Assembly (NCBI RefSeq): GCF_002571385.2
Contig: NW_019218004.1
Coordinates: forward strand, 347,241-411,240
Direction: 5' to 3'
Source of the DNA: Stylophora pistillata
Lineage: Eukaryota
Length of the DNA: 64,000 nt
The position numbers were made by a program, and so were the translations under genes. Below the pieces are notes generated by a model. It saw only the letters and a list, made by a program, of their open reading frames with translations, did no database searches and had not been told where the DNA came from. Positions 1,179 to 40,400 of the stretch are shown here, piece after piece (the first letter of the stretch is position 1; each line of letters opens with the position of its first letter).

Positions 1179-3767
1179 CGAGAGAGAACAGGAATGAGAA
1201 GCAAGCCAGAACTCTATGGAAAGCAAGCTTACTTCAGTGTAATCCACATTACGTGATATTTATTTGGAAAGATTTTACGTTATCTAAGAGATGCTCAAAG
1301 TGAGTTAAAAGTCGTGTCGAAAGTAATCGAAGTACGCTAGTGCTTTTTCGAGAAGAAATTATTCCCACGGATATACCGGACCTTAAAAGGAGAGAGCGGA
1401 AATATATTTAACCGCATTCGCCCGGCAAAGCTGACATTGGCCAAAGTGGTACCTTGTCGACTTCTCACGTACCTCAGTTTGTGTTTTTCTCAAACTAAGA
1501 CACATTTGTAAACTCTTTAATAGCACGAACAACTATAGATAATGTAAGTTGCCGGTAGCAAGTTAATTCCTAAATGGCAAATAGCGACGGGTCGCGAAGT
1601 AAAAAAATTAGGAAAAAAAGCAGTAAATGCTTTACTGGGTACGTTCCCGTTAAAGAAAAAGAGTTCGTTAGTTTCCTACAAATGCCAGGATCTATTCTGT
1701 TTTGTTCTATTTGGTTTTATTCTTTTTTATTACTTTTATCATTTTATTATTTTCAACTGTTTAGGTCAGTTTTTGTTACGTTATGTAACTCCTATTGCAG
1801 TGTCACGTGGCAGGTGTCAGGATGCCGCCAAACGAATATTTTTAATGACTGTATTTTTCCGGAAATGATCCAGTTTTCATTCCTGCCCACACTTACGTTA
1901 GACATGTATATAAAGACAGAATTGGGTCAACAGCCAATGAAATGTTTGTTACAGACGAAGCCATTGTTTTCATTGACTCAATACGCAACACATCTGTAGC
2001 TACGAATTTGACGTTTCATTGGTTTGATACTTAAGGTTTTTTTTCGATAAGAGGAAAAATGGCAGACGTGTCTCGCTTACATAACCAAAATTACATATGT
2101 AGACACGTGCAATCGTTTCCACGAAAATAGAGATTTACTTAATGTCGAAATACTACGGCGAATTTAAACTCAAGTAAGAGGGGTGCTTTGAGATTTTTCT
2201 AAGATTTTGTGATTTGCAAACCTTTTGTCAACTCGGTCGGGAACGAAAAACTATTAGTTCGGTTGGAAACGTATGGGCGGGGGGGGGAGGGGGCAGAAGG
2301 GAAGGAATGGGATGTTGAAGATAAAAACTGTGACGTTGCCGGTCCTTTAATGATGTTATAAAAATCATAATCATAGGACGTTATAATGATAAAAAGTATT
2401 AAATAAAGACTTCTAAACAGGTACATCAGTCTCAAGGTAATGTGATGAAGAGACTGTTATGGCGTTTATTAAAATCACTGAAATTAGCAAGCCTCCAAGC
2501 TGTTTCAAGCGCATTGCTTTGACAAAAAATTGCTCATTCGTGAAACGCCGTGGGCGAACTAATTGTGATACGTTCTATTAATATCGTGGTTGTTCCGTTA
2601 CAGTTATTTACGGCTGGGAAGCCCGCATGCTATGACGTTCGAGAAAGGGAAGTACTTCTGACTAAGCTATGTTGACTTTAATAATATGCTCAGTCTTTTT
2701 CTGTATTTTCTTATTCGCTAAACAATGAAAAGGTGTACTTTTAGATGACTCACGTTCGTTTCGCTCTCGTACTTCCACCTTTTCAGTCTCAATCTACGTC
2801 ATGACATTGTGAATTTGGTCAGTCGTTGAAACCAAATGACTTGTCCTGTCCAAAGAAGGAAACTTAAAACTTAAAATAGTTTGCTCGATCAATGAGGAAA
2901 ATATTTGAGAAGAAAATAAAACCAAAAAAGGGTAAGGATGGTCAAGATAATAAAATATTAATGTGGATTTCCGAAGGGGAACTTAAAGTACTCACGGCTT
3001 AATTTTCTCCTTTATTTACCTTTTCTTTAGAGGACATTTAAAAACAAAATCGTTGGCTATGGTTAAAAAGAAGAGAAAACCCCGGAAATGCGAGTATTTT
3101 CAATGATGTCAGTTAGACTAACCCTTTCACTGCAAGTGGTTATCAGCAAGTAAATTTATTTTGCAACTTTCAAGGATTGAGAAAACTACAGAATAGTAAT
3201 AATTACGGATTAACAAGTGCGTACGATCAAGCATAGGAATGAATAGTTTTGTCTCGGCGTAACAGATCAAAGTGTCATTAAACCTACGAACATGTAGGTT
3301 CTGATTTGTGATAACTCATTTCGTTAGATCAAATGACTGCAATTTATCTACGTATCGTACTTCCCATGGCATCCAGACCGAAGCACGCCGACCCGCGGGA
3401 TTTCACTTAGCCAGCGGGATTCGAAGCTTACACATGAAACCGAGGCTGGTGGTCAGCTATTCCAAGATGGCGCTCAAACTCTGAGATCGAACAACATCTA
3501 GAAAGAAGTGATACGATTTGTATGTGTTCTCCTAACGTTGAACGCAACCAGAGAATATGGCCTCGATTACAGACTAAGTTCTCAGGAAGAGCTAGCGAAC
3601 AGTATATGATTATCAATTAAAAGACCTTTTCAGAATTTGCAATTGAAAAGGCCAAAACGTCTTAGAGACGGTGAATTTGAAAAAATATTGAGCTCAATTT
3701 TTAAAGATGGTCTTTCCTGTCTCCCTCCCCTAATGTCGCTCCTTTGATACCCCTTCCCCACTTATGC

Positions 3768-5230
3768 TAGCCTGCGAAGCAAGCCCTGGGGGAGAGGAGG
3801 GGGAATTGGGGCGAGCGGAATGTGCGGAGGGGAGAGGGAGGGCTTGCCACAGACCCCCACTAACCAACGAAATTTCCGATCTCGTATGGACGAAAAATTC
3901 CCATTGGCTGAGAGCAACACGTTGTCAATCAACCCTCGGACTAAACTGTCTTCGTGGCGATTACCTTTTAGAAAATGGCGGACGACGGTGATTTCGAGAA
4001 GTTCTGCCCTCAAGAATCGATGTCGAAGTAGAATATTTGTGGCAGCCATCCACTTGTTCAAGCTCAGGGCCTTGATAAGAATGGCGTCTTCATTCTCAAA
4101 CTTGCCCTTAACCACAACATTGCAAAGCCGATGGATGTTGCATCCAAATTATCAATGTTTAAATTTATATCCATCGCTGAAGTTGAGGGTTGTCCTTTCG
4201 TCGGAGAGTCAAACAACGCTTCCCTGCTAGATGTAGGTTTTGCATGTGCCGAGCAGCGGACACGCAAGCTCTTTCTACCTAGACTTTTTCCTGTCGGTGT
4301 TGAGAACTTTCATTTCGACGGAACATCACGGGAATCCGGACATTGAGAAGCGGCCTTATTCAAAAATTCATAAAACTGGCAAAAACTGTTAGCTTTTCTT
4401 GCACAAGGAAGGCATATAATTTAAGATATGTGCGACTTATTTTCGAAGTGAAAACCGACCGTTCGAAGGCGATCGGCGAAGACACACTGAAATTATTCCC
4501 TTTGACTCTGATTAAAAATGTTTACAAAACTCTTGAAGCCACTTCCAAATTTAATTCTTTTAAGAATTAAATTTGGAAGATTTAAAAATCTAGTTTTAGT
4601 TGTTGTTTTACTTGTTGCTGTTGGGTAGATTTAAAGATCTACTCCACAAAACCGGCATTTGCTGGACTCCTCCGGCCGCTGGAGACAGTATCCAAGACAA
4701 GTCACAAATTTGATGTTAACGTGTTTAATAATCGCAAGATTCTCAAGGTCTTCGCACAATCACGGTCAATCTAATTCTCTTGTTCAATAGATTCGAATTA
4801 ACAACTTAAAAGGGTGGACAGGCTCTTAATAATACGCACGAGCTCCCGTTGTCACGGGTTACATAATTACGTAATATGTGCCCCAGTCCCCGACAGGCAA
4901 GCTACGTCTTCTGGATTAACTCTTGGCTTTCTCCCTCTCTTAGATTTTGATACCAAATTCTCCTTGTCGTCTGACATTTCTCGCTCACGTGGAGCAAGTT
5001 TTAGCTGTTGTTTTGACAGTTTGCATGGTTCACTGAGCTCTCGCTAACGGCGCTTCCTGATTGGTTAATTTTAAGAGGCGCTGATTGACACATGCAAGAC
5101 GATATGAATATGAAAATAAGGGGCGTTTCGTTAGCTTGTGGGGGTCTGTGGCAAGCCCTCCCTTTCCCCTTCGCACATTCCGCTCCCCCCAGTCCCCCCT
5201 CCTTTCCCCAAGGGCTTGCTTCGCAGGCTA
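3768..5230. mobile_element. Non-autonomous DNA transposon with ~105-bp TIRs (TAG...CTA) and 9-bp TSD; Academ/AcademH-like
   Basis: TAGCCTGCGAAGCAAGCCCT... at 3768 is the reverse complement of ...GGGCTTGCTTCGCAGGCTA ending at 5230. CACTTATGC is duplicated at 3759-3767 and 5231-5239. Superfamily inferred from termini and TSD length. Confidence 0.85.
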
Positions 5231-5597: not shown

Positions 5598-5616
5598 TCG
5601 ATCTGGTATCGTTTAA

Positions 5617-7163
5617 AGTGCTACTGAAACGTAATTTTCATATCCGAGATTTTGCAAAATAATAGAGTTTGAACGTTATTTGCAAACGCTGTGTACTTTT
5701 TTTGGGCCAACGCATAGCCGAAAGTACATTTTTAACCATTCGAAGTTGACCGGCTGAGATCAAAATTGGCGGCCATCTTGGCGCGGCCAAAACAGCCCTG
5801 TGACGTCACTGGTTGTGTACTTCTGTGAAAGAAGGGTAAAAGCATGGAGTGTGGCTTGCATGTTGGGAGGCCGAAAAAGAGGATTTCGGGCAAAATGCCA
5901 TCCTNNNNNNNNNNNNNNNNNNNNNNNNNNNNNNNNNNNNNNNNNNNNNNNNNNNNNNNNNNNNNNNNNNNNNNNNNNNNNNNNNNNNNNNNNNNNNNNN
6001 NNNNNNNNNNNNNNNNNNNNNNNNNNNNNNNNNNNNNNNNNNNNNNNNNNNNNNNNNNNNNNNNNNNNNNNNNNNNNNNNNNNNNNNNNNNTCGAAAGAC
6101 ATTATAACGGCAGATGGGCTACTAAACGCCCCGGGCCAAAGCAATGCCATTCAGAGAATGAAGAAAACATGGAAGCCTCATACGACACCGCCACTGAAGA
6201 TGATCTACTCGGCAAGTCTGAGGATAACGAACAAATCCCTCTGTACCAAATGCCTAGCAGAACATGCCCAGAATCCCTACAATATAGGGCGAGGGCCAAA
6301 ATAAGAGCAGACGAGGATTTCAAAAATGAGATAAAGCAAATCCTTAACAACGCGGAGCAAGAAACAGTAAAGGCGATCATGTGCTTCTATGAACGTGAAA
6401 TCGGTCGTTTTAATACCGAAATAAAGAAAAGAAAACGAGCCAAAACGGCTGGAACACTGAACACTAAGAACTGTAGTACGATCGAATCAGCGCGCGTGGC
6501 GCAAGCTGAAAGCAATCAAGACAACTTAACGATCGAGACAGTCAAAAAAATAGCTGTACATCTACAAAGGCGAACGATTCGAAAAAGACGCAATCCCTGA
6601 TGTGCGTACTCAGTGCCACACATAAAGCAAATTCTCATGAAAAACTGGCATTTAATAGAAACACAACCACTACTGAGCGAACTATACAAAAATCCGCCGC
6701 TCGTATCTTACAAAAGAGGGCGGTCGCTCAAAGACATACTCGTGAGGGCTAAACTTTGAATAGGCTACTCTAAACACACGCTTGGGAGTCGTGTAGGCCT
6801 GTCAACCCCATTTTACGCCACCATCTTCCTCTTCGCTACTGGAGACAACTTCGCTTCGTTCAGAAGAAGATTCACTTGACAAAACTTCAATATCTGCCAT
6901 CTCCTTCGCCCACGAATACAAACAAACAGTGAGTGAAATAAACCACGCTATCGGAGTGAACACAACCAGTGACGTCATCAATCCATTTCGCTCGGTACCA
7001 GGGCCCGGACATGGTTTTGTGTAAAATTTTTGATTTGAACGGTTAAAAAAGATATCTTTCGCTTCTTTTTGGCCAAAGCAAATTATCTCATGATGATCAG
7101 CATATTCAACACTACAGGTTAGAGCAAATATTTCAGATACGAAAATTTCGTTTCAGTAGCACT
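5617..7163. mobile_element. Kolobok-like non-autonomous DNA transposon, copy 1, with Penelope-like cargo
   Basis: TIR AGTGCTACTGAAACG / CGTTTCAGTAGCACT flanked by TTAA at 5613-5616 and 7164-7167. AG...CT termini with TTAA fit Kolobok better than piggyBac. Near-identical copy at 38147-38880. Gap at 5905-6091. Confidence 0.8.
6092..6815 (+). mobile_element. Internally deleted Penelope-like element fragment (N-terminal region plus RT C-terminus, no GIY-YIG)
   Basis: Encodes ..CPESLQYRARAKIRADEDFKNEIKQIL.. and, in another frame, ..IKQILMKNWHLIETQPLLSELYKNPPLVSYKRGRSLKDILVRAKL* (stop 6757-6759). The latter resembles the PLE RT thumb/linker also seen at 12760-13152. Confidence 0.6.
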
Positions 7164-8846
7164 TTAACGACGATTATCAGTTTATTGTCTTTGGTTTGAA
7201 GCGCGTAGAATCTCATTTTCTTTGTTTTGTTGGTGTCATATCATACCCTTATAAGTCATAACTTAGGGCTGTCAAGAATAATTCAATTTCGCGTCCTTAA
7301 AAAGCTTCCTTAATATAATGGGGAAAAATGGAGTCCAGTTATTAAGTCTTACTTGTGTTCGGCTTTCTGTGATCTGGTAATGATTTTACTTGGATAGGGG
7401 TTATTTATTAGACCTAGACCTCGAGATTTTGAGGACTAGAAGCTATGATGAGTTTTCCAAAACTTTTTTAGAAACAATTTTTTATTCTATTTCAAAGACG
7501 AGCTTTACGAACAAAACTAATGTTTTTGACCGACTCTAATTTCTTAATTTTGAGGATATAGTTTTTATTGTAGATAAAAAATTATTTAAACTTTTCTATC
7601 TCTACATCAGCAAGCCTATTCATCAGTTGTTTTATTAATTAATTTGAAACAGAAGTTTGAAGTGTCAGAGGCAGGCTAAATTTTGGTGGTTTAATTTCAA
7701 TTGTAGCTATAACTCTCAAAAGCTTTAGCTATCTTGAAATTAACTTATGTCAAAGTGGTTCAATACTCATCAATAATTACAAGCTGCTCGTGCGTTAACA
7801 ACAATTTTCAATAGCCCATAAACCGTGTCCTCAAGTCTGTATGATAACTACATTTCCATTAGGAATCATATTTTACGAAGCAGGCGGAAAATTTCAATTA
7901 CGAAAAGCCTTTGCGCAGCTTGCAGTCCATTGCCGAAGTTTTGCCTATTTACAAAAGGTTTTGAAACCAGTCAGAAATGATATGCCATATTTACATAGAA
8001 ACAAAACTGTACAAACTAGCTTGACAGATTTTGCTCTTCATTTCGTTTTCGCATTTGGTCGTGCGTGGGCAAATCCATTATGGAAATAGCATATTTTTCG
8101 ACTAAAAGGAACGCAGTATTGTTATTAATTGTATGGCTAATGACTAACCGGGTTAATTGGAATTATCTTTGAACAGACTTGAAGCTTCCTTAAGCTGTAT
8201 CTATCAGTTGCCAATATCCGGTAAGAAGTAGGTGGTTCGGTTAAAATTACACCCTGCATTTGATTTTGAGCTATATTAAAATTATCACTTTTATTTATTC
8301 ATCGCCTTGAAGGCTGCCTTGGCCTCGGAAAACGCTTTTGCGGTATTCTGAACTGAAGGATTAGTGGCGGCCGAGACAAAGTGAACTTTTGAAAGATCCT
8401 AGGCGACAGTGCCTGCTGGACGAGATTTTCTCCGTGAAGACCATTGTTTCTAATTGTGTCTTGTGACGTTTTTGTTTCTGTCTCTTAAGAAGGCTGGTTT
8501 ATATTAACGGCCACAGCTCTCAAAGGCGCCTCGATCAACGTCACGAAATCTTGCACATAAAGACACAAGTCGATAACTTAGTAAAGATTCAAGAAGGTAT
8601 CTGCAACAGCAAGTTATGTCCATGATTTGTTAAGCGTTTGGTACTACTATTTGCTGATATCCAAGGCAACAAACAAGATCGGCAAAGCGGCTGTCTTTTA
8701 GAATACGTATAGCATTTACAGCTGTACAGCTTTGGGTAATAAGCATTTCCAAGACAGTAGAGCGGATTTTAAAACCGCACTTCCGCTATTAACCTACCTT
8801 GTCTCCAAACACAAGATCTTTTTCTTCAGTACAGTTTCTTTCAGTT

Positions 8847-9854
8847 ATGTCTGATTCTACGTTGGTAACGAACACAACATCTTCGCAGGCCACTACGGAA
8901 CCTCGCGCCGAACCACATGCTGAGCCAGGCCCTGACTGGGAAATAGCGACGCAGAAATGGGGAGTAGCTTGGCAAGTGCATTGGGCTGGATTCGGTGTCA
9001 TTTTCAGTATGTTAGCTCTGCGCTCCGTTATCGCCCTATCGCAAGTCAGAAAGAGAGAAGGATTTGGTAGAAAGCCCTTGGTCGTTGCTATCAACGCGTT
9101 GCTCATGACACAAGGAATGACACGAGCCTTATTTTTGTTTCTAGATCCTTACGAATCAAGGACGAATGGATTAAAAGTCCCATCTTGGCTGACGAATTTA
9201 CTCTACGGTATCACATTTCCTTGTTTGACTTCCTCTTTCTGCCTCATACACTTGGCATTTGTTGAAGTCTCCAAGGTCCAAATTGGATCTAATAAACTTC
9301 AAAGTGTGTCCTTCTTAAGCGTGGTTATAACGATTCACTTTGGGGTGGTCGTAACGGCAGAAACAGTAACCGCTCTGAGGGCGGATCTTACACCCTTGAT
9401 TATTGTGTGCCAGTCGCTTTTCATCCTTTGGGGCTTCCTCCTCTCGACGAGCTTTATTTACAGCGGATTAAAAGTCATTCAACGTGATGTCGCTGTTCAG
9501 AGGGAACTGCAAATCGTCCAGATCGACAAGGCTAGTAAGATGGGGAGACCAAAACAAACAAAGAGAACTATTAAAGTTGCGAAGATCACCATGGCAACTA
9601 GTATTTTAGGATTTGCATGCTGTGGACTGCAGCTGTATTCACTATTTGGCGTGTACACCTTATATAGTAAAGTTGTAAACCCTGCTCCTTGGCCGTGGTG
9701 GACATTTCAAACGTGTTTTAGACTGGTGGAATTCTTCATGGCTTGCACCATAGCCTACAGTGTTATGCAACGTTCCTCAGCCAGAGAAATAAGCGAAGCC
9801 AACAAACAAAGCAACGACATCAGCCAAAACATAATAAAGCCTGGGAACCACTAG
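8847..9854 (+). CDS. PRRT3/PRRT4-like seven-transmembrane protein, paralog 2
   Basis: ORF with AEPGPDW..WGVAWQVHW, LDPY, FPCLTSSF, KVAKIT and PWPWW. First in-frame ATG is 8847, just after a pyrimidine tract plus CAG. Confidence 0.85.
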   Translation: MSDSTLVTNTTSSQATTEPRAEPHAEPGPDWEIATQKWGVAWQVHWAGFGVIFSMLALRSVIALSQVRKREGFGRKPLVVAINALLMTQGMTRALFLFLDPYESRTNGLKVPSWLTNLLYGITFPCLTSSFCLIHLAFVEVSKVQIGSNKLQSVSFLSVVITIHFGVVVTAETVTALRADLTPLIIVCQSLFILWGFLLSTSFIYSGLKVIQRDVAVQRELQIVQIDKASKMGRPKQTKRTIKVAKITMATSILGFACCGLQLYSLFGVYTLYSKVVNPAPWPWWTFQTCFRLVEFFMACTIAYSVMQRSSAREISEANKQSNDISQNIIKPGNH

Positions 9855-11628: not shown

Positions 11629-12640
11629 ATGTGGTCCACGCAATCAAAAGCTTTGCGAAAATCAATGAATAAGACTCCAACCTTGTGACCTGTATCCAAA
11701 GCTCTCCTCCAGGACTCAGTAGGATGGAGGAGAAGGCTTTCAGTAGAGTACCTTTTGTCTATTAGTTAAGATACCATTAGAAATAATATGATCATCCAAA
11801 GACTTGCATACTACCCTCTCGAGTAGTTTCCCTGGGGCACTAAGCAAAGATATTGGTCGAAAATTGTTAGGGTCCAGTCTATTCCCTTTTTTAAATATAG
11901 GTAGAACTGAAGATACTTTCCACTGTTGGGGGAACTTACAACAGAACTTAATAGAGGAAATGTTGCAATCTGCAACACTCGGTCTGTACTGAACTTTTTG
12001 TGACAGTAGTTTGGACGATATTTTATCCATGTGGAAAACGTAACAGTTACTATGGTTTTCAGATAAGTGTACCTATGAGGACTTTCTAATAGAGAAAATT
12101 TACAAGTTTTTCAAATTTGCTATCAAACCAGTTACGTAAAGACCGGTATGGTAGTAAGCTGCGAATGCAGCTCTTGTACCAACGCGGAGATAAACATGTC
12201 ATCAGTTAAATGTAGCAGTTTGATTTGATATATGAAACGGACTTCGATGATCAGGATGCCCTGGGGGACTTCATGTAATCGCTTGTATTACATCTCATCT
12301 TATCTATCAAGGATTTCAGATATTCCCGGCCCAGAGAATATTTTTGAGGTTATCTTCCCTAACGGAAAAGAACGTCATATCTGAGTCGTGTGATGATCGT
12401 ACAGTGAGTATGCCCTTGACACGACCGGGCCGGCTAGGAAAATGTCGTCGTATCATTTAGATACAATCTTACGCTTTTGCAATCGTAAAGAAATGAAGAA
12501 AAGTGGGAAGTTGCTGGCGCAGAATGTACGCAAATATGAAAGTATTAGTGAAGCCAATTCCCTTTAATAAATGAGTTAATCCTTTAACTCTTATGAGTGA
12601 CCAAGGCAAAATTTCTCCTTGCAATATCAATACAATATCA

Positions 12641-13314
12641 TTGGTTATATCAACTAAGTTGAAATTGTAAATTGGCCACCGTAACGAACAAAAAAGCTGA
12701 CGTTTCGAGCGTTAGCCCTTCGTCAGAGCAAATGGAGGAATTGTGGGTTGTGTGCGGTTTTATATGCAGAAAGCGGAGCAATAGATAACGTTGGCGGAGG
12801 TGCACTTGAAGTGATCGGTGATCTTAATGGATCGCTTGAGTCCCGATATTTTCTGAGCGTTGTGAATGAAGGGAAAAGTTTTGCATCGGGCGCGAGCGCA
12901 TTGAAAAGTGCCGGCTTGATCATTAGTTTGGAATGAACGTCTGACCAAAAAATTGCCTATGTTTTTGTCGCGTTTGAATGAATTAAGTGGAGATTGCGAA
13001 AAGATAGTGCCAGTCTCTGGATCGTTTTGAAGTAATTTGAAGTTTTTAAGAATAATTGATTTAACTGAGTGGTTATGAGGGTGAAACGTGAGAGTGAATG
13101 GAATGCGGTCGGAATTTTCCTTGTGACGTATGTATTGCAGACTGTCGATCAATAAGTTGGACGCGGTGATGACCCGCTTGAACGACAGAAACAGGGTAAC
13201 CGATCACTTCAAGTGCACCTCCGCCAATGTTATCTATTTCATAACTTGCACATATTGCAAAAAGTTATACATCGGCGAAACAGGAAGACGACTAGGTGAC
13301 CGATTCCGAGAACA
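12641..13314. mobile_element. Penelope-like element (Neptune-type) fragments in inverted arrangement: pseudo-LTR, RT C-terminus, start of GIY-YIG
   Basis: Minus ORF ..RIPFTLTFHP..FKRDKNIGNFLVR..CARARCKT..; plus frame TDHFKCTSANVIYFITCTYCKKLYIGETGRRLGDRFRE (GIY-YIG). Hammerhead-bearing terminal repeat at 12641-12780. Confidence 0.9.
12696..12729 (-). ncRNA. Minimal type I hammerhead ribozyme motif (PLE-associated)
   Basis: Minus strand reads GCT-CTGACGA-AGGGC-TAAC-GCTC-GAAA-C-GTC-AGC: CUGANGA and GAAA core, stem II, GUC site. Confidence 0.75.
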
Positions 13315-15420: not shown

Positions 15421-15580
15421 ATCCTTTCACTTCCACGGACGGTCTCATTAGATTCTTCTTACTGTCTGCCGTACAATTCTTATGAACTTATTGTAGAGAA
15501 TTTTGTGATGGATCAACTAAAAAATTCCCTCATCGATATTTTTCTTTATCCTCATCTCTTGTCAGCTTGATATTGTATTG

Positions 15581-15699
15581 GCTGAAAGTTTCTAAAGAAA
15601 CTGTGGTGCTGCCTCGGTGGGGGGTAACAAGATAATTGGTTATATCAACTAAGTTGAAATTACAAATTGGCCACCGTAACGAATAAAAAAGCTGACGTT

Positions 15700-15731
<32 letters not shown>

Positions 15732-15812
15732 GGAATTGTGGGTTGTATGTGGTTTTATATGCAGAAAGCGGAGCTACGCCATTAGTGGGAACATGGCAAC
15801 GAGAAGATTGAA
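15581..15812 (-). mobile_element. Penelope-like pseudo-LTR with hammerhead motif (15691-15724)
   Basis: Near-identical to 12641-12780 and to the 32.6-kb and 61.4-kb copies; intact CTGACGA...GAAACGTC core on the minus strand. Confidence 0.85.
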
Positions 15813-23800: not shown

Positions 23801-24292
23801 ACAAGGAGGTGAGAAAGATAAGGTTTTGGGCGGTTTCTTAAGTTAGCAATTATCATTTTATCGTTACGTCCCATTTAGTGTAACTTTTTCTTTATCCAAA
23901 TAATACAGGCCAGCATTTGAAAATTTATTTACATTCGTCCATTTTCCATGAGAGTCGCTTTTAGTTTATATTAAACTCGTTTCTCGTTCTTCTTTATGTG
24001 TTTTGGTTTTGTTTACGAATAATTTGAAAACTCATAGCAACATTGTCTTTCTAACTGATAAATTTTAACTACGGTTAAATAAGAAGTTATAGTGTGGTTG
24101 ATAATAGCGGATAATTAGATCAAGTTTTATCGGTCATCTCATGACGTAAATTAACATGATGAAAATACCATCGAAGGTAAATTCATCCACAGGAAAAAAA
24201 AACAATTTAGAAACGTGCTTCACACGCGGCGATAGAAATAGACATCGAAGAAATAAGCATCCTTATGTTTGATTTGCAGAGCTTCATCCCCA

Positions 24293-25267
24293 ATGACGAA
24301 TTCTGCAAGTAAATCTGTGGAACAGCCGACAACTGCGGCCGTAGCAGAACCGGGTCCTGATTGGCCAGTTGCAAAGGAAATTTGGGGATTAGCATGGGAG
24401 CTACACTGGGTTGGGTTAGGGATCCTGTTTGGCTTGCTGGCCGTTCATTCCTTTGTTGCCATAGTGATGGTGAAGCATAGGAAAGGATTCGCTCGCAAGC
24501 CATTGTTTGTGGCTATAAATGTGATGCTGCTTGTGCTCGGAGTAACCAGATCCGTGTATCTGTTGTTAGATCCTTACGAATCCAGAGAAAATGGCGTGCA
24601 AGATCCACAGTGGATCACACTGCTTCTCTTTGGAATCGCTTTTCCTTGTTTAACTTCTTCGTTTTGTTTGATTCATCTGGCTTTTCTCGAGGTCACGAAG
24701 CTGAAGGTCGGTCCAAGCAAGCTGCAGAATGTGAAATTCATTTCTGTTATCATTGTAATCCACTTCATCATTGTCTTGGTTGCAGAGACCTCCGCCTCCA
24801 TGAAGCCAGAACTGGACCCCCTGTTGATAGTGTGTCAGTCTTTCTTCATTCTCTGGGGCTTACTGCTTTCTGGTAGCTTCATCTACAGTGGATGCAAGGT
24901 TATCAGGCGGGTGGAAAACGTTCACGAGCAGCTGAATTCTATCGAGAAAAACGAGCAACTGCGGAACAAGAAAGTTAAATCTGGCACGACCAAAGTGGCT
25001 AGGATAACCATTTGCACGAGTGTCCTGGGAATTGCTGTTTGCGCATTGAATAGCTATTCCATGGTGGGCGTCTACGGTTTGTACAGCAAAGTGGTCCATC
25101 CTTCTCCTTGGCCCTGGCTAGCATTTCAATCGGGATTTCGCCTCGTTGAGCTTGCCATGGCAGGTACGATAGCCTACAGTGTGATGCAACGAGAAGGGAG
25201 CACGAAGAAAGACAACATGGTGAGTGCGACCAAGGGAGTGAACATGTCTTCAAGAATTAAGTCATAA
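24293..25267 (+). CDS. PRRT3/PRRT4-like seven-transmembrane protein, paralog 3
   Basis: Same motif set (AEPGPDW, WELHW, LDPY, FPCLTSSF, KVARIT, PWPW). ATG 24293 follows the acceptor-like TTTGCAG. Confidence 0.85.
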   Translation: MTNSASKSVEQPTTAAVAEPGPDWPVAKEIWGLAWELHWVGLGILFGLLAVHSFVAIVMVKHRKGFARKPLFVAINVMLLVLGVTRSVYLLLDPYESRENGVQDPQWITLLLFGIAFPCLTSSFCLIHLAFLEVTKLKVGPSKLQNVKFISVIIVIHFIIVLVAETSASMKPELDPLLIVCQSFFILWGLLLSGSFIYSGCKVIRRVENVHEQLNSIEKNEQLRNKKVKSGTTKVARITICTSVLGIAVCALNSYSMVGVYGLYSKVVHPSPWPWLAFQSGFRLVELAMAGTIAYSVMQREGSTKKDNMVSATKGVNMSSRIKS

Positions 25268-28200: not shown

Positions 28201-30375
28201 TCGTGTACCATAAAACGCGAAATATGACGACCGTTATACTTTAAGAAGAAGAACCTTCCCTTTAATTTCTGTTGGTAGAGTCCTCTTTGTCTCCCCGTCC
28301 TAATTTTAACGACACAGCCTATAACTTAGTGATCATAATCTGACGGATCCGAAGTTTCACTTTATTAAATTTTATTTGACTTGGCACCTGTTCCATGAAA
28401 TCTAACTGTTTGAATATCATATATGATAATGAGTTTTCGTCAGAGAGTGACTCTATCCAAGTTTTTAACGCACACTGCGTCTTGAGAGATTAAACTTAAT
28501 TAAAATGTTTCAGTATCGCCTGAAATTAAGGAAATTGCTTTTTCGGCTCGTCCTGAGGTATATCATTCCTAGAAGTCGTTTCAATAAATTTTTTTTAGAG
28601 CGGTTAAGGAATATAGTCATTTGTTAGTTATGTTATTCCATGGGATTGTAACATGCAATGCGAAAATTAATCATTTTAACCGCTCTCCCACTGAAAATTG
28701 TTCTATAGCATGGAGGTCGTTATATTGCATGGAAGTCGAGACGTGAGGTGAATTATTTAATCAGGGAACAAAGTTGATAGGTAATGGGGCGAGCGCAGTG
28801 GGCCAATATCAAAATATTTTTCGTGTCTTTTTGTTTGTGCATAGTAAAGAATGAAGTCTTGAAAATCTAGTTAACTTTTACATTGTCACCTCTTATCTTG
28901 TTTCCCCGCCCTGAATTGTTCTAGTGATAATAATTATATCTTTGGGGAGAGATATCCTTCAAGGGCAGTGAAATATTCAATTGAAACTCTACTGTCTTGG
29001 TGCTCAGCTTTATTTATAGCCTACATCCCATGATGCATCAGCCCTCAACATCCCAGGAGAATAGAAATATGATTAAAATAGGAACTGACTCAACCGGTAA
29101 ATGATATCACTATGCTTGATGACACCCACTCTATCAGCTGGTTTTTTCCGTAGAAATATCAGAGTCGCAGAATTTTTAGGGTGGTAAGTACTGAGGAGAG
29201 CTCAGAGTATTCTTTGGATTCATTTGCTCATAGAAAGCGGTTCAAATATAACAGTGGAAAAAATTGAGAAAAATTTCTTGTTGAGGCAGATCATTTTTTT
29301 CAGCATTGTACAAACAGCTCAAAGCAGACAGCAAGACTGAGGTCAAATTTTTCCCGGAAAAAGGTTTGCCATTTTGCTCTTACCATGAACATCCTGTTAA
29401 CCTATGCTATGGGTCATTTTTGGAGCCCCTTCAAAACTTGTAAACGTAAAAGTAGATAACCACTTCTGAAACATATAGGAAAGATGATGGCCATGGGTAA
29501 CTAAGACCACAACTAAGTGCAGTCAACCAGTGTGAAAAATATCAGCGAAAAAAGCTCTTTAAAAGTTCGAGTTCCTCGCTGAGAAAGGATTACGAATCGT
29601 CATCTTAAATATGCAATTTTTTGCTTCGACGTTTCAAAATGCTGACAGAACATATAGCTACTTTATAACAGGAGTCTAGAGCGCCGGAAAAAAAAATGGG
29701 TATTTCTTTTAATGCAACGGCAAGATCGCCATGATTTAAAGAAAATACTGTTCTAAATCAGTTAATTTTTTTTTATGCCTTTCTCGAAGTTCATGCTGAG
29801 GGAGTCTTTGCGCATCCGGAAGTCATTTTTCCCAGGTGAGCTGTGAAAATTGAATAAAGAGTTTTTTTCAGCTGCTGGTAGCTGGAGATATCCGCCTTTT
29901 TGAAAATGCTTCATCACGCTCTGTTAACAATTGAGGGATCAGCGTCAAGCAGTTTGTGCAAAAAATTAAAGTTTGTCCGATTTGAAAGTACATTCAATCT
30001 TTTCGATCCTTAAAGAATTCTTGCTCTGTATCGGTTTCACTCCCATTTTGGTGTTTTTTTTTTTTTTACCTAACCAAACTAAAATTTTCTGATTGACTTC
30101 ACGTTGAAGATAATGCTACTCAGCACTTCACAGCAACAACTCTAAAAACCTACTGGAAGTTGGCAAAAACTAATTTCTAGAATATCAAACAATGATACAC
30201 TTATCTTTGCGTCCGTTATTTGCAATTTTTGTAAGTTCAAGCAAAAATACCTGATATTCAAACCACCTTTGACTCAATTCCAATCTTCAATTTCGATATA
30301 TATAGTTCTGTTTTTTTTTTTTTTTTGATTGGACTCCTTCAAAGTTCAATAAAAAGTAAAATTTCTTATTAGGTG

Positions 30376-31401
30376 ATGTCAGGCTCAACAGTGACAAACG
30401 ACACCAATGAGGTGCTCACGGAAACCTTGCCTGAACCGGGTCCTGATTGGCCAGTTGCAAGGAGAATTTGGGACTGGGCATGGGAACTACACTGGATTGG
30501 GTTTGGCATCTTATTTGGTGTACTGGCCATTTACGCATTCATTGCCGTAGCTTTCGCTAACCGTAGAAAAGGATTCGGTTCAAAGCCTTTTTTCATTGCC
30601 ATTAACTTGTTGCTGTTCGGCTTAGGATCAACTAGATCCGTGTATCTGTTGTTAGATCCCTACGAGTCGAGACAAAATGGTATCGAAGATCCAAAATGGT
30701 TGACGCTACTTCTCTTCGGAATCGCTTACCCTTGTCTGACATCAGCGTTTTCCCTGATTCATCTTGCTTTTCTTGAAGTCACTAAAATGCAGATCGTCCC
30801 GAGCAAGTTGCAGAATGTGAAATTTTTATCTGGTGTCATTTTCCTACACTTCATCATCGTTTTCATCGCAGAGACATCAGCGTCCATAAAACCAGAGTTG
30901 GACTTTCTTCTGATCGTGTGTCAGTCATTCTTCATCATCTGGGGTTTGTTTCTATCCGGTAGCTTCATCTACAGCGGATGCCGTGTCATGAACAGTGTAG
31001 AGAACGTTCAGCGGCAGCTTATTGCTATGGAGAGTAATGCACGTCCTTCACTGGGTACGACAAGCAAGACCAGTACGACAAAAGTGGCAAAGATTACACT
31101 TGGTACGAGTTTCCTAGGCCTTGCCGTGTGTGGGTTGCAGTTCTATTCCATGCTAGGTGTTTACGGTATGTACAGCAAAGCTGTCCATCCTTCTCCATGG
31201 CCGTGGCTTGCTTTTCAGTCGAGCTTTCGCTCCGTGGAACTTGCTATGGCGGGTACGATTGCTTATAGTGCAATGCAAACGGAAAGAGGGAAGACAAAGA
31301 TTAGCAGTTGGGCTGAGCGACGAGTTATGTCGACGGGAATGATCAAACCATCGCTTGTCCCAGTGGAGCTCGTGGTTCCCAACGTAGTGGCTGCTGTTTG
31401 A
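30376..31401 (+). CDS. PRRT3/PRRT4-like seven-transmembrane protein, paralog 4
   Basis: Same motif set, closest to paralog 3 with long shared nucleotide stretches. ATG 30376 follows TTATTAG|GTG. Confidence 0.85.
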   Translation: MSGSTVTNDTNEVLTETLPEPGPDWPVARRIWDWAWELHWIGFGILFGVLAIYAFIAVAFANRRKGFGSKPFFIAINLLLFGLGSTRSVYLLLDPYESRQNGIEDPKWLTLLLFGIAYPCLTSAFSLIHLAFLEVTKMQIVPSKLQNVKFLSGVIFLHFIIVFIAETSASIKPELDFLLIVCQSFFIIWGLFLSGSFIYSGCRVMNSVENVQRQLIAMESNARPSLGTTSKTSTTKVAKITLGTSFLGLAVCGLQFYSMLGVYGMYSKAVHPSPWPWLAFQSSFRSVELAMAGTIAYSAMQTERGKTKISSWAERRVMSTGMIKPSLVPVELVVPNVVAAV

Positions 31402-32592
31402 ATTTTCTGCTTGAGCTTATGTTTGTGGACTAAGACCATTTGCGATGGAGAAATTGGTTAGGTTTATTAGCCAAATTGTTAAAGACTGAGGATATGTTCA
31501 CGATACTTTAAAGAGCTCAGTCATCCTGAGGTACAATGGTTAACTTGATAAAAGTACTTAGGTGCTAACTCGAGAGAAGAAGATTTAGATTGAAGGCACT
31601 CGGATCGACAGAGTAGAAGAAGAGGGTTCAGCAATCGCTTCGCGACGGATTCTTAAGCACCTGGCAAATGCTTCCTTCTTGTAACTGCCTCCAAGGTTTA
31701 TGTCACGAGCCAACGCTCTTAAAGATGAATTTCAAACTTGAATAAAGGTAAATTGGAGGCATAGTAGAATTAGGGAACAACATGCATGAGTCAACTCTTG
31801 GTTTTTCATACGCTGAATAGTTACTCCAGTCCTCGTCGTACCAACTGCTGAGGACTTATCGGCTGTGTTCATTGGACAACGTGACTGGTTGAAAAATTAC
31901 TTGCTTTTAATAGTGTTACGAAAATGAAACTAAATCAGTAACCTTTGTTTAGCTTTGAAAAAAATTTCATCTGCATTATAAATTAGAGAACACTAACTCG
32001 AATTCGTTACTTGTTGCGCTTATATCACACGGTGTTATTTACTTCCTTCCTAAATCTCTATGGAGAAATATTGAATAAAAGGAAGAGGTATACTGTGGGA
32101 AGCTTTTAAGAAGGCAAACAGACCTTGCGAATTTTCTGCGTGAGACTTTTTGTTCAATTTTTTGTACCAAGACTAATTACTAGAGCCTAATTACTTCCTT
32201 CTTTCCGTATTGGACTCTGAATCAGTGAGGAGATCTTTGAATGTTCTCAGGCTAGTGAAAGAAAGTTTCCCTCGTACTGTGAAAGGAAAAATTATTACCG
32301 GTCAAAATTACCCCCAGAATACTGAAATTATCATTGCACAAAAGAAACTTACCAATTAATCATATCATACGAATCATTGTTCTCCGTTCCAAATTCAAAC
32401 ATTGTCATAAATATCCGTTGGAGTTTTTTCATCTTAATTTTATAAACGATTCAATGTTTTAAGAATTTGAGCTGAAGACATCTATTATTTGTAAGCTGTG
32501 TTTAGAACTTGAGTTTATATAGGCTAAGACTGCCCAAACAAGAAGTTGCCAAAATTAATGATGATTATCAGCTAATGAACTAATTAATCAAG

Positions 32593-32833
32593 TAATTTGA
32601 ATATATCAACAAAGTTGAAATGGTAAATTGGCCACCGTTACGGTTATAAAAGCTGACGTTTCGAGCGTTAGCCCTTTGTCATTCGCTCCGACGAAGGCCT
32701 AACGCTCGAAACGTCAGCTTTTATAACCGTAACGGTGGTCAATTTACCATTTCAACTTTGTTGATATGTTCAAATTATTTCGTTGCCCTCACCGACGCAG
32801 CGCCAAACAGTTTCTTTAGAAACTATCAGCCTT
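32593..32833. mobile_element. Palindromic Penelope-like pseudo-LTR remnant with opposed hammerhead motifs
   Basis: 32593-32777 is a near-perfect hairpin (~90-bp arms) followed by the pLTR terminus ..CAGTTTCTTTAGAAACTATCAGCC. Plus-strand motif at 32685-32718 has a CCGACGA core; the minus-strand copy is damaged. Confidence 0.85.
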
Positions 32834-34876
32834 AATGAATCGTGTTCATTAGTAATTTGGCTAGTTTGATAGATACATCCTGTGATATCTCCTGACCTTG
32901 TTACACTGCTCCTTCAACAACCTCGAAATCATCATCACGGCAGAATCTTGCACAAAAAACATAAAGAATCAAGTTATATCAATTTCTGAGAGGCTAGTTT
33001 TGAATAACAAGCACACGGTGTTTCAATACTTTAATCAAACTAGTCCGCAGTCCGGCTGTAATCCTTCTAAAGGTCAGATCACAAGTGTGTTTCAGAATCT
33101 AAAGTTCATGCTCCGTGTTCACCAAACAATGATAATGGCTGAAAAGTGATTAGTAAGAGCATTACTGTTACTTCGAACGTACACTGAAGAGAGACAGTCT
33201 TCACTATCTAAGGTCTTATGACGGTCTGTGCAATGTTCGTTGTAGATTGGTTTAGGTTTTTTCGATCAAAGGTGACTTTTGGTGGAGTTGCAGAGGAACA
33301 GGAAGTGTCTAGTCTCCGGTGAATTTGACCTCCTGCTTAATCGATCTCGCATGAACGGCTAAAAATAAGATGGCAATTGAATTGCGAACTTTCTTGACTT
33401 CGATACCACATCCTGTTTATGCAATTTGTCAGTTTTTTCTTCCAGAATATAACAACACGAAGCAAAGACTTCACGTTTTGATAGGAAGTTAAGGTAATTA
33501 ACAGATTTAATGAATCTCGTAATAAAGGTTGGACCTCTCTTGACCTTCACTTAGCTTGTGCATAATTAAACTTAAAGGCACTTACATGTTGTTTGCCAAA
33601 CGCACCCCTTAGGCAATATTATTTCGAATATTGTTTGAAATAAAAAACGAGCCCTTGATAAAACTAAGTACGAGTAAATAAGGGATAACGAGTATTTTTT
33701 TAGTGGTTCGCACGGCCCTGCGATCATTACAAGTCCATCGGTTCACAGCGTGTCGCAACAAGCCTTGAAAAGTCTCAGTACTCACGTGCGTCGAAGCTCC
33801 GTTTAGGAAGCTTTCAAGACTAATAGTAAATGCTTTCCGTGAAACAGAGCTTTTCGTTACATTTGAAATAAAACCTTTCCTAAATCTAGGCAACAACGGC
33901 GAAGTTCAGGAACTGTTGTATTTGTGAGCGACAAGCAGAGTCTTATAAAATTGTAATTGAGTCAACCAGCTTAATTTATTGGGATACCTTCGCGCGCTTT
34001 TGAGCCAAGAGTTTTGACAGAAAACCGCGATAAGTTTCAGTGGAAACTGGAGCAATCGCAGGATCACGGAATAGCCGAGCTTTGAAAGCAATGAACGAAC
34101 TCAGAACAGCTTCTAATTATACAGCTCTAATATGTCCAATCAATTTACAACTAATACTTCCATTCACAAGGTTTGTCGCGAAAATCGGAATAGTCTTATC
34201 ATATTCTGACTCATTCAATGAACGCCGCTTAATACTGAAGCTGTTGCTCATGGAGGCGAAATAACACACTGCAGTCACGCTACGGAAATATTGACAAATA
34301 AATTCACAATGAGGTCGATGAGGTATTTAAGAAAGAAAACTTTTTCCTTCGCTCAAATATAAAAATTCTGCAGGTGTTTGCTTTGTACTTTGAAAGCTTT
34401 TGTCTCGTCATAAAGGTCACTTCGACTGTTTTACACGCGACGTGAAGTAGATGTAACTATCCATTAGGTTTAATTAAATACAGCAACTTATCAAGAAATG
34501 AATAACACTTTCTTCAAATCAACTAACTAAAATCTACATCTATGAAAACGCTATTATTTAGTTATAAAAATGTACATTGAATGAAGACTCACAGCGTTGC
34601 CAATTTAAACACGATTATAAACTTGACGCGATTTCTCGAGCAGCCGATGAAATCGATTCTCCCACCTGGCATTCGCGATGAAACGTTCATGAATTAACAC
34701 ACTTTCAATTAGCTCTCGTCTGAATAAAATTCCATATTCAGTCGTGTGCATTCAGCGAGCAAAATCAAGCATTTGTGGCAGCTTTAATCAAGCTCAAATA
34801 CCTTAATTTCCGAGTTCAAGGACAGCAGAGAGAACCTAAGAGATTTGTGTGTATTTTGTTCATGGTTCAGGTTCAG

Positions 34877-37486: not shown

Positions 37487-40400
37487 ATGGCGGAAAAGGA
37501 CTTTCAACCGTTGACACAGAATGTTGTTCGTGGTTTGAACGATAAGCTTTACGATAAACGTAAAACAGCGGCGTTAGAAATTGAGCGGTGAGCATGTGAA
37601 GTCATGACCTGTTTTTAGGGAACAGGCGTACTCGTAGTTGTGATCTTGTTGTGAGTCGTCAAATCGCGTGATTATTTTTGGATATCTCTTACTCAATTTT
37701 CGTTTATTTATGTGCTGTGTACCTCTGCAAAGAGGGAAATCGTAACAAACTAAACTTTAGTTCGCCGATCAGGTGAGGCGCTCCGCTAAAATGTTTGCAA
37801 ATGAGGTACCTTTCTCACTTGTTGAAATGTTTGTTTTTTCTTTGCTTCCTCGTCGTGAATTCTTCTGTTCAATTGCTTTAGAATGGTAAAAGAATTTGTG
37901 GCTAGTAATGATGTGAGGCAAATTAAACGACTGACTGCTGTGCTCGCTGAAGAATTTGCAGTTTCACACAACAATCACTCAAGAAAGGGAGGTCTTATTG
38001 GACTAGCCGCTACTGCTATAGCTCTGGGAAAGGTAACGATATTTTGCTTTCTTCTAATTGATTTGTGATCGATGTTTGGTTGTTGTTTTTAATTGTCAAG
38101 GGCTTAAACACTACTCTAATGTTATTGAAGGTCAGTTTATGTTTAAAGTGCTACTGAAACGTAATTTTCATATCCGAGATTTTTGCAATATAATAGAGTT
38201 TGAACGTTATTTGCAAACGCTGTGTACTTTTTTTGGACCAACGCATACCGGAAAGTACATTTTTAAGCATTCGAAGTTGACAGACTGAGATCAAAATTGG
38301 CGGCCATGTTGGCGCGGCCAAAACAGCCCTGTGACGTCACTGGTTGTGTACTTCTGTGAAAGAAGGGTAAAAGCATGGAGTGTGGCTTGCATGTTGGGAG
38401 GCCGAAAAAGAGGATTTCGGGCAAAATGCCATCCTCTTCTTATTCATCGGCGGCCACATCGGCATCTTGGCTATCTGCGAGAGGTTCGCCTGGATAGGAA
38501 GCAAAATTCCCGACTGATACCGAGAACGAATCTCTACCAGTCTATATAGTTAATCGGCAACTGACGAGATCCACCNNNNNNNNNNNNNNNNNNNNNNNNN
38601 NNNNNNNNNNNNNNNNNNNNNNNNNNNNNCGAATACAAACAAACAGTGAGTGAAATAAACCACGCTATCGGACTGAACACAACCAGTGACGTCATCAATC
38701 CATTTCGCTCGGTACCAGGGCCCGGACATGGTTTTGTGTAAAATTTTTGATTTGAACGGTTAAAAAAGATATCTTTCGCTTCTTTTTGGCCAAAGCAAAT
38801 TATCTCATGACGATCAGCGTATTCAAAACTACAGGTTAGACCAAATATTTCAGATACGAAAATTTCGTTTCAGTAGCACTTTAAGGAAGTTTAATACATT
38901 GGTCTCGCTACCCCTAAGGTAGCGGTAATGACTAGTTACTAGATAGTCTGCATTTTGCACAATTGCTCTGGACCGGGTTGATCAAAGCTGCGTTAAGATA
39001 ACCCAGGATTAAAGTGAAATCTGATCTCAGATCTGAAAGCTTAAAAGAAAATTCAGTATGGTTCTTTTTGTCTAGACTTTGATGATTGGATGCTCTAAAA
39101 ATAATGTAGAAATCATATACCAAAAAGGTTTTTTTGTCACAAAGGAATAAAGAAACCCAGGTTAAAATTAACCCTGGTATAGGGCTAATCTGCCTTTCAA
39201 ATAACTGGGTCCCACTGGTTATAGAGAATTTGTGTCATAACCCACTATAATCACCTCATGCAAGGTGTTACGTAGGTGTTACTGAGGAATTGTTGGATGT
39301 GATAAAGAAACTTCAATTTGGAACATTTTTCTTGCTATTCTCCTGTTATAGTACTTTCTACTGAAAACTCTTAATAACTCTTAGACAAAGATTTCTGAGG
39401 GCATTTTGAAAAAAAAATTTAGCTAAAAAATTTTCAAAGAGCTGCGAATTGAAGACCTACTGTTTATTTACTATCATAACGATATTTGGTAACTTTGTAT
39501 TTTGATTGTAATGCCGTTGTGAGTTAAAACTTTTCAATGTAATGTTCTTTCCAGGATGCTGGTCTATATTTGAAAAGTCTTATACCTCCAGTGTTGACCT
39601 GTTTCTATGATCAAGACAGTAGGGTTCGTTATTATGCCTGTGAAGCACTTTTCAACATTGCCAAGGTTGCAAGAGGCTCAGTGTTACCATTTTTCAATGA
39701 TATATTTGATGGGCTGAGCAAGGTGAGTCAAAGTTAAACTACAGATAGTCAACAGCAAAAATGCCCTTAAGACATGTGCTTTGATACACACTTTTTTGGG
39801 GGGGGGGGGGTGAAACATGAAAAATGTGTAAAGCTTTTGCATGTGTGCTAGCAATTAACTTTTAAGCTGTAATGCAGTTAAAGCTTCTATAATTATAATA
39901 ATAGTTTGGGCTAGGGGTTTCTTTTCACTTGTCACAATGGATGTTTTCCGTGGTACCAAGGAGGAAACATATAGGGATTATGAAATATTGTACAGATTAA
40001 AGTCCTACATTGGGTGATTGAATTTTGTCAGTTCATAATGGATGTATAAGTGGTAATTGAATATGCAATTTTGTTCTGAAATAATTTTTGCGATTTCAAA
40101 TCAAACTGAAACTGCATGCTCATCTGATTTTGAAATCACACGTATGGTTTCAGACCAAATTGCACTGCACTCAGTTTGATTACCATAATCAATTGCACCC
40201 TAAGTTGGCAATTATTCCATCATGTTTATCTCTAATTAAAGTTAAACTGAGATTAACAATTAATATGTTTTTAATACCTGTTGGTTGTGGGAATGTTGAG
40301 CCCTAAGTTGTAACTTACAGGAACCTCTAAAAATGCTTCAAGGGGAAATGGGTTAAAAGGTTTAGACTACTGTATACCTTCATGTTATATCATGTGTCCA

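Follow-up and report, generated by a model that had tools for sequence, protein, structure and literature searches.

The window, the whole stretch of 64,000 nucleotides from Stylophora pistillata that was analyzed, contains two copies of one transposon, at 5617-7163 and 38147-38880, each bounded by TTAA tetramers. Both had been recognized in the sequence-only reading of the window and were confirmed: their arms are 97% alike, with TIRs of ~40 bp and the termini AG..CT. The TIRs of the carrier match at 39 of 44 positions, TTAA counted in. In copy 1, the left TTAA TSD lies at 5613..5616 and the left arm at 5617..5981 (+ strand; TIR ~5617-5656), of which 5905-5981 falls in an assembly gap and was deduced from the paralogous locus L004. 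This gap (5905..6091) consists of 187 N, and L004 has exactly 187 nt there. The right arm (6815..7163, +; TIR ~7124-7163) is followed by the right TTAA TSD at 7164..7167. Copy 2 including both TTAA extends over 38143..38884 (+) and is interrupted by a gap at 38576-38629, in which 54 N stand in place of an expected 868 nt. TTAA was found on both sides, with distinct and unrelated flanks, at 28 of the 34 two-ended loci (hand count), which supports the TSD read from the sequence of copy 1.

TTAA combined with RR..YY ends distinguishes Kolobok from piggyBac, according to the available text of PMC9587614. The AG..CT termini are of the RR..YY form, and piggyBac was therefore ruled out as the carrier class. 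It is highly probable, as part of the joint composite scenario set out below, that the carrier is a non-autonomous Kolobok-type DNA transposon of ~730 bp when empty. A 278-bp deletion derivative of the composite's Kolobok, which retains both ends and the TTAA, was observed at L081 302-579.

A sister family possesses the TIR AGTGCCACTG, nearly the same as that of the composite, and arms that are 65-75% alike. Its copies measure 1.45 kb or 3.5-3.9 kb; the long ones are degraded and contain THAP (E 7e-12) and DDE (PF20700, E 2e-7; C/DxxH motif FFDQWH) domains and an acidic frame on the reverse strand. The corresponding frame of the carrier is 55% identical to that of the sister family, which continues into a Cys-rich part. 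Its 5' part in copy 1 (MADIEVLSS.., 6815..6900, - strand) runs through the empty sites and is likely a remnant of KolX; the candidate KolX frame had no matches in Pfam or PDB. We take the reverse acidic frame to resemble KolX, the P2X7 ballast-like second protein of Kol0. An intact transposase or autonomous partner with the exact ends of the composite was not found in the genome, and the mobiliser was likely the sister Kolobok family with its nearly identical TIR.

The elements lie among a tandem gene family of four paralogous frames of 335-353 codons (171-1175, 8793-9851, 24257-25264 and 30373-31398, all +), which are hydrophobic and membrane-protein-like. The window further contains an 839-codon frame resembling a LINE endonuclease/RT (48138-50654, -) and palindromic MITE-like repeats, those at 61346-61743, 32590-32842, 15580-15805 and 12632-12781 belonging to one family, with another at 51703-52137.

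The deleted Penelope-like cargo and its RT-only parents

The cargo of copy 1 is a non-coding derivative of a Penelope-like element (PLE) at 5982..6816 (+), comprising 833 bp plus a shared AC. It accounts for 54% of the length of the composite and replaced 15 bp of the carrier. Compared with the full-length parent, it lacks about 190, 1350 and 290 bp through three internal deletions, located near 6259, at 6557-6566 and at 6610-6612. The remnant of the N-terminal frame (6094..6600, +; ATG at 6169) is cut by deletion 2, and a 55-nt middle piece of the RT (6557..6612, +; YKGERFEKDAI.DVR) is read in another frame. The RT thumb end (6610..6759, +) terminates in ..LKDILVRAKL*, with the stop at 6757-6759, which is the natural C-terminus of the RT-only family. 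The 3' untranslated end follows at 6760..6816 (+), and free copies end at the identical point. Thus, the N-terminal frame and the thumb end described in the sequence-only reading are both present in copy 1, but the two are not simply joined, because three deletions separate the pieces and the 55-nt RT middle is retained between them. Inverted PLE pieces were seen beside L153 and L071, and none within the composite.

Four annotated coral gene models (P0003-P0006) incorporate PLE sequence with 82-100% identity to the cargo, and these fusions are likely annotation artefacts. Annotators should be aware that both the copy number and the apparent activity of the PLE are overstated here, where most copies move as DNA cargo.

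A hammerhead was predicted at ~6025-6072, inside the gap of copy 1, as read from L004. The motif would form a complete type I hammerhead, with stem I GGCAA/UUGCC, CUGACGA, a 5-bp stem II, GAAA and a palindromic helix III. It matched Rfam HH9 (E 3.6e-4; 27.1 bits, under the gathering score of 52), 16 of 20 composite copies contain it in identical form, and its region gave a fold z of only -1.8. A hammerhead core, as suspected earlier from the edges of the two gaps, is thus present in full, but the proposed reconstruction was wrong, since the true GAAA lies within the gap of copy 1. The TCGAAA at 6092 was rejected as part of the core; it is a second copy that occurs by chance 38 nt further downstream. 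Hammerheads with a short palindromic helix III are described in the available part of PMC4209133 as inefficient in cleavage when monomeric. At L004 1896 and 1961, contigs in each of the three RNA runs contain the hammerhead but directly after it diverge into other sequence, possibly that of another PLE subfamily or a retrozyme.

Full-length versions with a complete RT, which the sequence-only reading had proposed to look for, were recovered outside Kolobok: the free parents L063, L064, L069 and L070 (2.4-2.7 kb) contain the N-terminus, RT, thumb, stop and 3' end, and terminate ~60 nt past the stop, at the same point as the cargo. Free deleted copies of ~1.1 kb, also outside Kolobok, have the same 5' end and deletions 1 and 2. 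One or both of these deletions occur in the free copies L152, L153, L149, L112, L146 and L154, and by alignment in L079; deletion 3 was seen only in the Kolobok composites. The 5' region of the free PLEs was considered as a THAP start and rejected, since no TIRs accompany it and only PLE copies have it in common. By position, the long free PLE at L070 2170-4834 lies within a palindromic MITE, with ~85 bp of flank repeated on either side, and that at L063 2222-4798 is flanked by tRNA-like genes (by eye).

Within their last 260 aa, none of 120 close homologues possessed a Cys linker or a YxG motif, whereas in the EN+ comparison set the Cys linker was present in 113/120 and the YxG motif in 108/120. 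The exact LVRAKL-type stop occurred in 99 of the 120 homologues. A Pfam search of three full-length proteins for GIY-YIG gave no match, and the RVT_1 domain was found in two of the three full-length homologues tested. Accordingly, the view that full-length relatives lack GIY-YIG was upheld, which sets them apart from the EN+ PLEs (Neptune, Nematis, Poseidon, Hydra, Naiad) with their in-frame endonuclease. The named homologues among the RT-only set are from corals, and in trees the RT-only proteins group among the GIY-YIG-bearing PLE RTs; the first RT tree (25/108 and 30/105 rows) came from a quick search only, and the second was a FastTree tree without named references. When the search was broadened, 43 of 111 core-covering cluster representatives were seen to end <=35 aa past the thumb, although incomplete records may account for some of these short rows. 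The coral group falls, with other RT-only rows, in one branch (support 86; unrooted FastTree tree) that contains 34 such rows, and the tree forces at least 7 changes of endonuclease state. Distant relatives (P0248-P0397) are often RT-only PLE proteins of ~640 aa, which cluster in deep branches; one such cluster, P0257, is multicopy with many members from pearl oyster. Judging from these sequences, the RT-only relatives appear to form a deep clade that reaches molluscs.

A search for TSDs at free PLE copies gave best repeats of 3-6 nt, none of them consistent. An EN+ PLE with a Zn-finger linker and GIY-YIG is present in the same genome (L080), and the 1.1-kb copies moved without a protein of their own, so that the RT-only family could have been mobilised in trans by an EN+ (Neptune-like) PLE, with nesting in transposons occurring by chance. 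However, intact RT-only frames of 830-900 aa at 50-90% identity occur across many clusters, consistent with selection acting on the RT that they encode; further, identity to the sampled EN+ proteins in the RT core reaches only 28-38%, and a consistent TSD is lacking. We regard mobilisation in trans as rather unlikely.

No pair of telomere hexamers (two within 110 nt) was found at any of 59 PLE 3' ends, in an assembly that does not resolve true chromosome ends. PLE copies are dispersed deep inside large scaffolds, and no tandem chains occur in the fetched loci. These observations make it very improbable that the family is a telomere-associated EN-minus PLE of the Coprina/Athena type with interior copies as strays, despite the C-rich AACCC run at the PLE 3' end and the weak clade that Neptune forms with the EN-minus Coprina in the available part of PMC8557442.

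Junctions, empty sites and probable amplification of the composite

The genome was searched with the left arm and with the cargo, which yielded 40 and 44 scored places, respectively. Among the loci fetched, six gap-free composites of 1548 bp were found elsewhere in the genome, with their own flanks and 2-4% divergent, and the closure of the gaps, proposed earlier, was achieved for copy 1 through such gap-free paralogues, the 187 N being filled by an equal length of L004. From the same paralogue, the left junction between carrier and PLE in copy 1 was placed at ~5981/5982, inside the gap. In copy 2, a PLE stretch precedes the gap at 38513..38575 (+), with the 5' PLE junction at 38512/38513 (C221:385737); copy 2 thus does carry PLE sequence. 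Genome-wide, with <=3 mismatches allowed, we counted 69 3' junctions and 48 5' junctions, versus three empty carriers. A common cargo and identical junctions are thus found in many TIR-flanked copies, as looked for in the sequence-only reading.

Many copies adjoin gaps and the cargo shows 100% identity, as would be expected if the composite were an artefact of collapsed repeats; the near-100% identity and the many gapped copies may indeed partly reflect assembly collapse. RNA contigs from three poly(A) runs of two studies nevertheless span the element and both junctions; such contigs are not proof of transcription, strand or level. Six gap-free copies that are 2-4% apart and have their own flanks, together with independent contigs that cross both junctions, leave an assembly artefact with almost no likelihood.

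In empty carriers, 15 bp occupy the place of the 833-bp cargo, which indicates loss of target without duplication. The same empty joint with the same 15 letters is also present in an independent RNA run (X17). At each side of the junction, 1-2 nt are common to the cargo and the carrier target, and the lost target resembles the PLE 3' end over 7 nt. TCCTCTTC, which had been read as a TSD at both edges of the cargo, is not one: both octamers, of the form TCCTC(G/T)TC, belong to the empty carrier, where they lie 70 nt and 12 nt off the true junctions. Further, of 25 left arms, 22 show TCCTCGTC as the left octamer and none shows TCCTCTTC, and the TCCTCTTC at 6827..6834 (+) corresponds to acidic codons of the carrier.

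The arms of filled carriers differ by 2.9% on average among themselves and by 5.0% from the empties (the third empty carrier, L096, was left out of this table), and three diagnostic arm sites separate filled from empty carriers (n = 7 filled, 2 empty). All Kolobok composites have a single junction pair, one private deletion and these three arm sites in common, which argues for one insertion event. The acidic reverse-strand frame is continuous across the insertion site in empty carriers, and the empty state is therefore the ancestral one.

We consider it very likely that the composite entered by this single insertion and was then amplified passively to ~70 sites by a trans-acting transposase. 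The series would have begun with an RT-only parent PLE of about 2.8-3 kb, from which a 1.1-kb non-autonomous PLE, moving on its own, would have arisen. This element would then have inserted into the Kolobok carrier, with deletion 3 occurring then or later, and the composite would have been amplified by cut-and-paste with transposase supplied in trans. As to the entry itself, we favour, with some reserve, a break already present in the DNA as the primer of reverse transcription, aided by 1-2 nt of microhomology, with the loss of 15 bp and no duplication; the priming step is deduced from one junction pair. The EN+ PLE at L080 could have been the source of the nick.

Of the two routes first proposed, hitch-hiking in and targeting of a cut-and-paste element, the repeated occurrence of PLE cargo in such elements was substantiated, while targeting of this Kolobok was not. 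Because free 1.1-kb copies and full-length parents exist outside Kolobok, passive amplification is likely rather than targeting. Nor is an RT-only lineage dispersed as a coding element by the carrier, since the cargo cannot encode RT.

Penelope-like pieces in other transposons

There are 138 exact PLE 3' ends in the genome, and 40 of the 100 listed are Kolobok junctions (hand count). Among 52 further listed ends, 37 lie in seven multicopy families (18, 7, 3, 3, 2, 2 and 2 ends) and 15 are single. All seven families have inverted repeats (IRs), and one of them is built of tandem units. With Kolobok included, eight multicopy carriers with inverted repeats thus account for 77 of the 92 PLE 3' ends examined. 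For single insertions (the 15 listed plus five fetched earlier), an IR spanned the insertion in 5/20, compared with 11/171 random points (p = 0.016); at an L2-like LINE control, the value was 0/16 usable loci of 30 (p = 0.053).

Two of the seven families, carriers B and C, and the single copy L108 are related THAP/exonuclease-type elements, which we presume to be ISL2EU-like. They are 71-75% related, and their PLE pieces are 88-93% alike, in one orientation and positioned within ~45 nt of a homologous site. In carrier B, the PLE is located at a deletion breakpoint of the parent transposase frame. Empty right arms of B, C and L108 were sought and none was recovered. The PLE of L108 (3074-3329) and those of B and C are three separate insertions, and ATTG comes directly after many of the PLE 3' ends.

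A second composite of 1.14 kb with the TIR AATAGCGCTTTATACT was observed in ~25 copies (L110 ~234-1377 on the minus strand, L106, L114, L117, L247-L260). It consists of a THAP remnant and a 174-bp PLE 3' piece at a deletion breakpoint, and its PLE-free parents (L261/L262) contain a 558-aa THAP-transposase frame. A third composite (L127 ~2418-3950, L263-L292) is 1.5 kb long, with a related THAP/exonuclease carrier and a 744-bp PLE piece; 21 of its 30 fetched right arms adjoin the PLE 3' end.

These carriers raise the question of whether the RT-only PLE prefers cut-and-paste elements, priming on their breaks or hairpins and so borrowing the transposase as an endonuclease. Eight unrelated or distantly related multicopy IR carriers hold PLE 3' pieces, single insertions are IR-spanned more often (5/20 versus 11/171 random and 0/16 LINE), and B, C and L108 have PLEs at near-homologous positions, in B at a breakpoint. 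However, multicopy clusters lie in mobile repeats by definition, and 15 of the 20 singletons have no spanning IR. The samples are small, the control windows overlap, and repeats preserve insertions better. Further, the position in B and C may represent the shortest arm still able to transpose. Since the samples are small and repeats shelter insertions, the IR nesting excess of single insertions is a hint and not a result; it is suggestive only, and we hold such borrowing to be fairly unlikely. A broader form of the idea, in which a deep, dispersed RT-only PLE clade of corals and other marine invertebrates outsourced its endonuclease to transposon breaks, filling or creating internal deletions of the transposons and spreading with them until chimeras made up most of its copies, seems to us distinctly unlikely.

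We concluded that the Kolobok composite is a genuine retro-in-DNA chimera, probably from one event of ordinary nesting, and that its cargo belongs to a little-described RT-only PLE lineage. The genome offers a dated series, from the parent through a deleted copy mobile as RNA, the empty site and the filled site to the amplified composite, and its many independent junctions make it testable how EN-less elements obtain a 3'-OH at sites other than telomeres.

Comparison with known retroelements and composite transposons

EN-minus families arise within EN+ clades, and dispersed and rDNA-targeted ones have been described; those away from telomeres must use some alternative means to obtain a 3'-OH (PMC8557442, available sections). 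Dispersed EN-minus families such as MjPLE01 and PLE-X are thus already known from that source. The coral family shares with Neptune-like PLEs and these EN-minus offshoots, as far as the accessible descriptions go, the PLE thumb end and a type I hammerhead near the 5' end, but differs in that most of its copies are fragments in DNA transposons. In its nearest EN+ relatives, the Cys linker and GIY-YIG come directly after the point at which the coral family stops. With Athena and Coprina it shares the absence of an endonuclease; in contrast to them, 59/59 of its 3' ends are without telomeric repeats, and its copies occur singly and dispersed. A name for the coral RT-only group, its deep relatives or the composite was not found in the portions of the literature available to us, and Repbase, Dfam and subscription journals, which lay outside that scope, may list them.

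The carrier resembles the Kol0 lineage in its TTAA TSD, RR..YY ends and short TIR, and the sister family likewise combines a THAP + DDE transposase with a second frame on the reverse strand (PMC9587614, in the part available). Unlike Kol0 as described there, the carrier is without coding capacity, and over half of the composite is retroelement cargo.

Targeting of DNA transposons by retroelements is exemplified by the Tx1 non-LTR retrotransposons of Xenopus, which encode an endonuclease and insert time and again at their target. Their location in Tx1d is alike in that a retroelement lies inside a non-autonomous DNA transposon (PMC6719617, accessible text). In contrast, the Kolobok composite would represent one insertion of an EN-less element that was amplified by the carrier, with no repeated insertions at one site.

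The 2026 coral preprint (bioRxiv 10.64898/2026.07.22.740005) treats only EN+ PLEs in the part of its text that was available. Like the animal retrozymes described in the available parts of that preprint and of PMC4209133, the cargo is non-coding and derived from a PLE, and its type I hammerhead has a short palindromic helix III. The cargo differs from animal retrozymes in that its hammerhead is single and non-tandem, in that it retains coding remnants, and in that it now moves as DNA.
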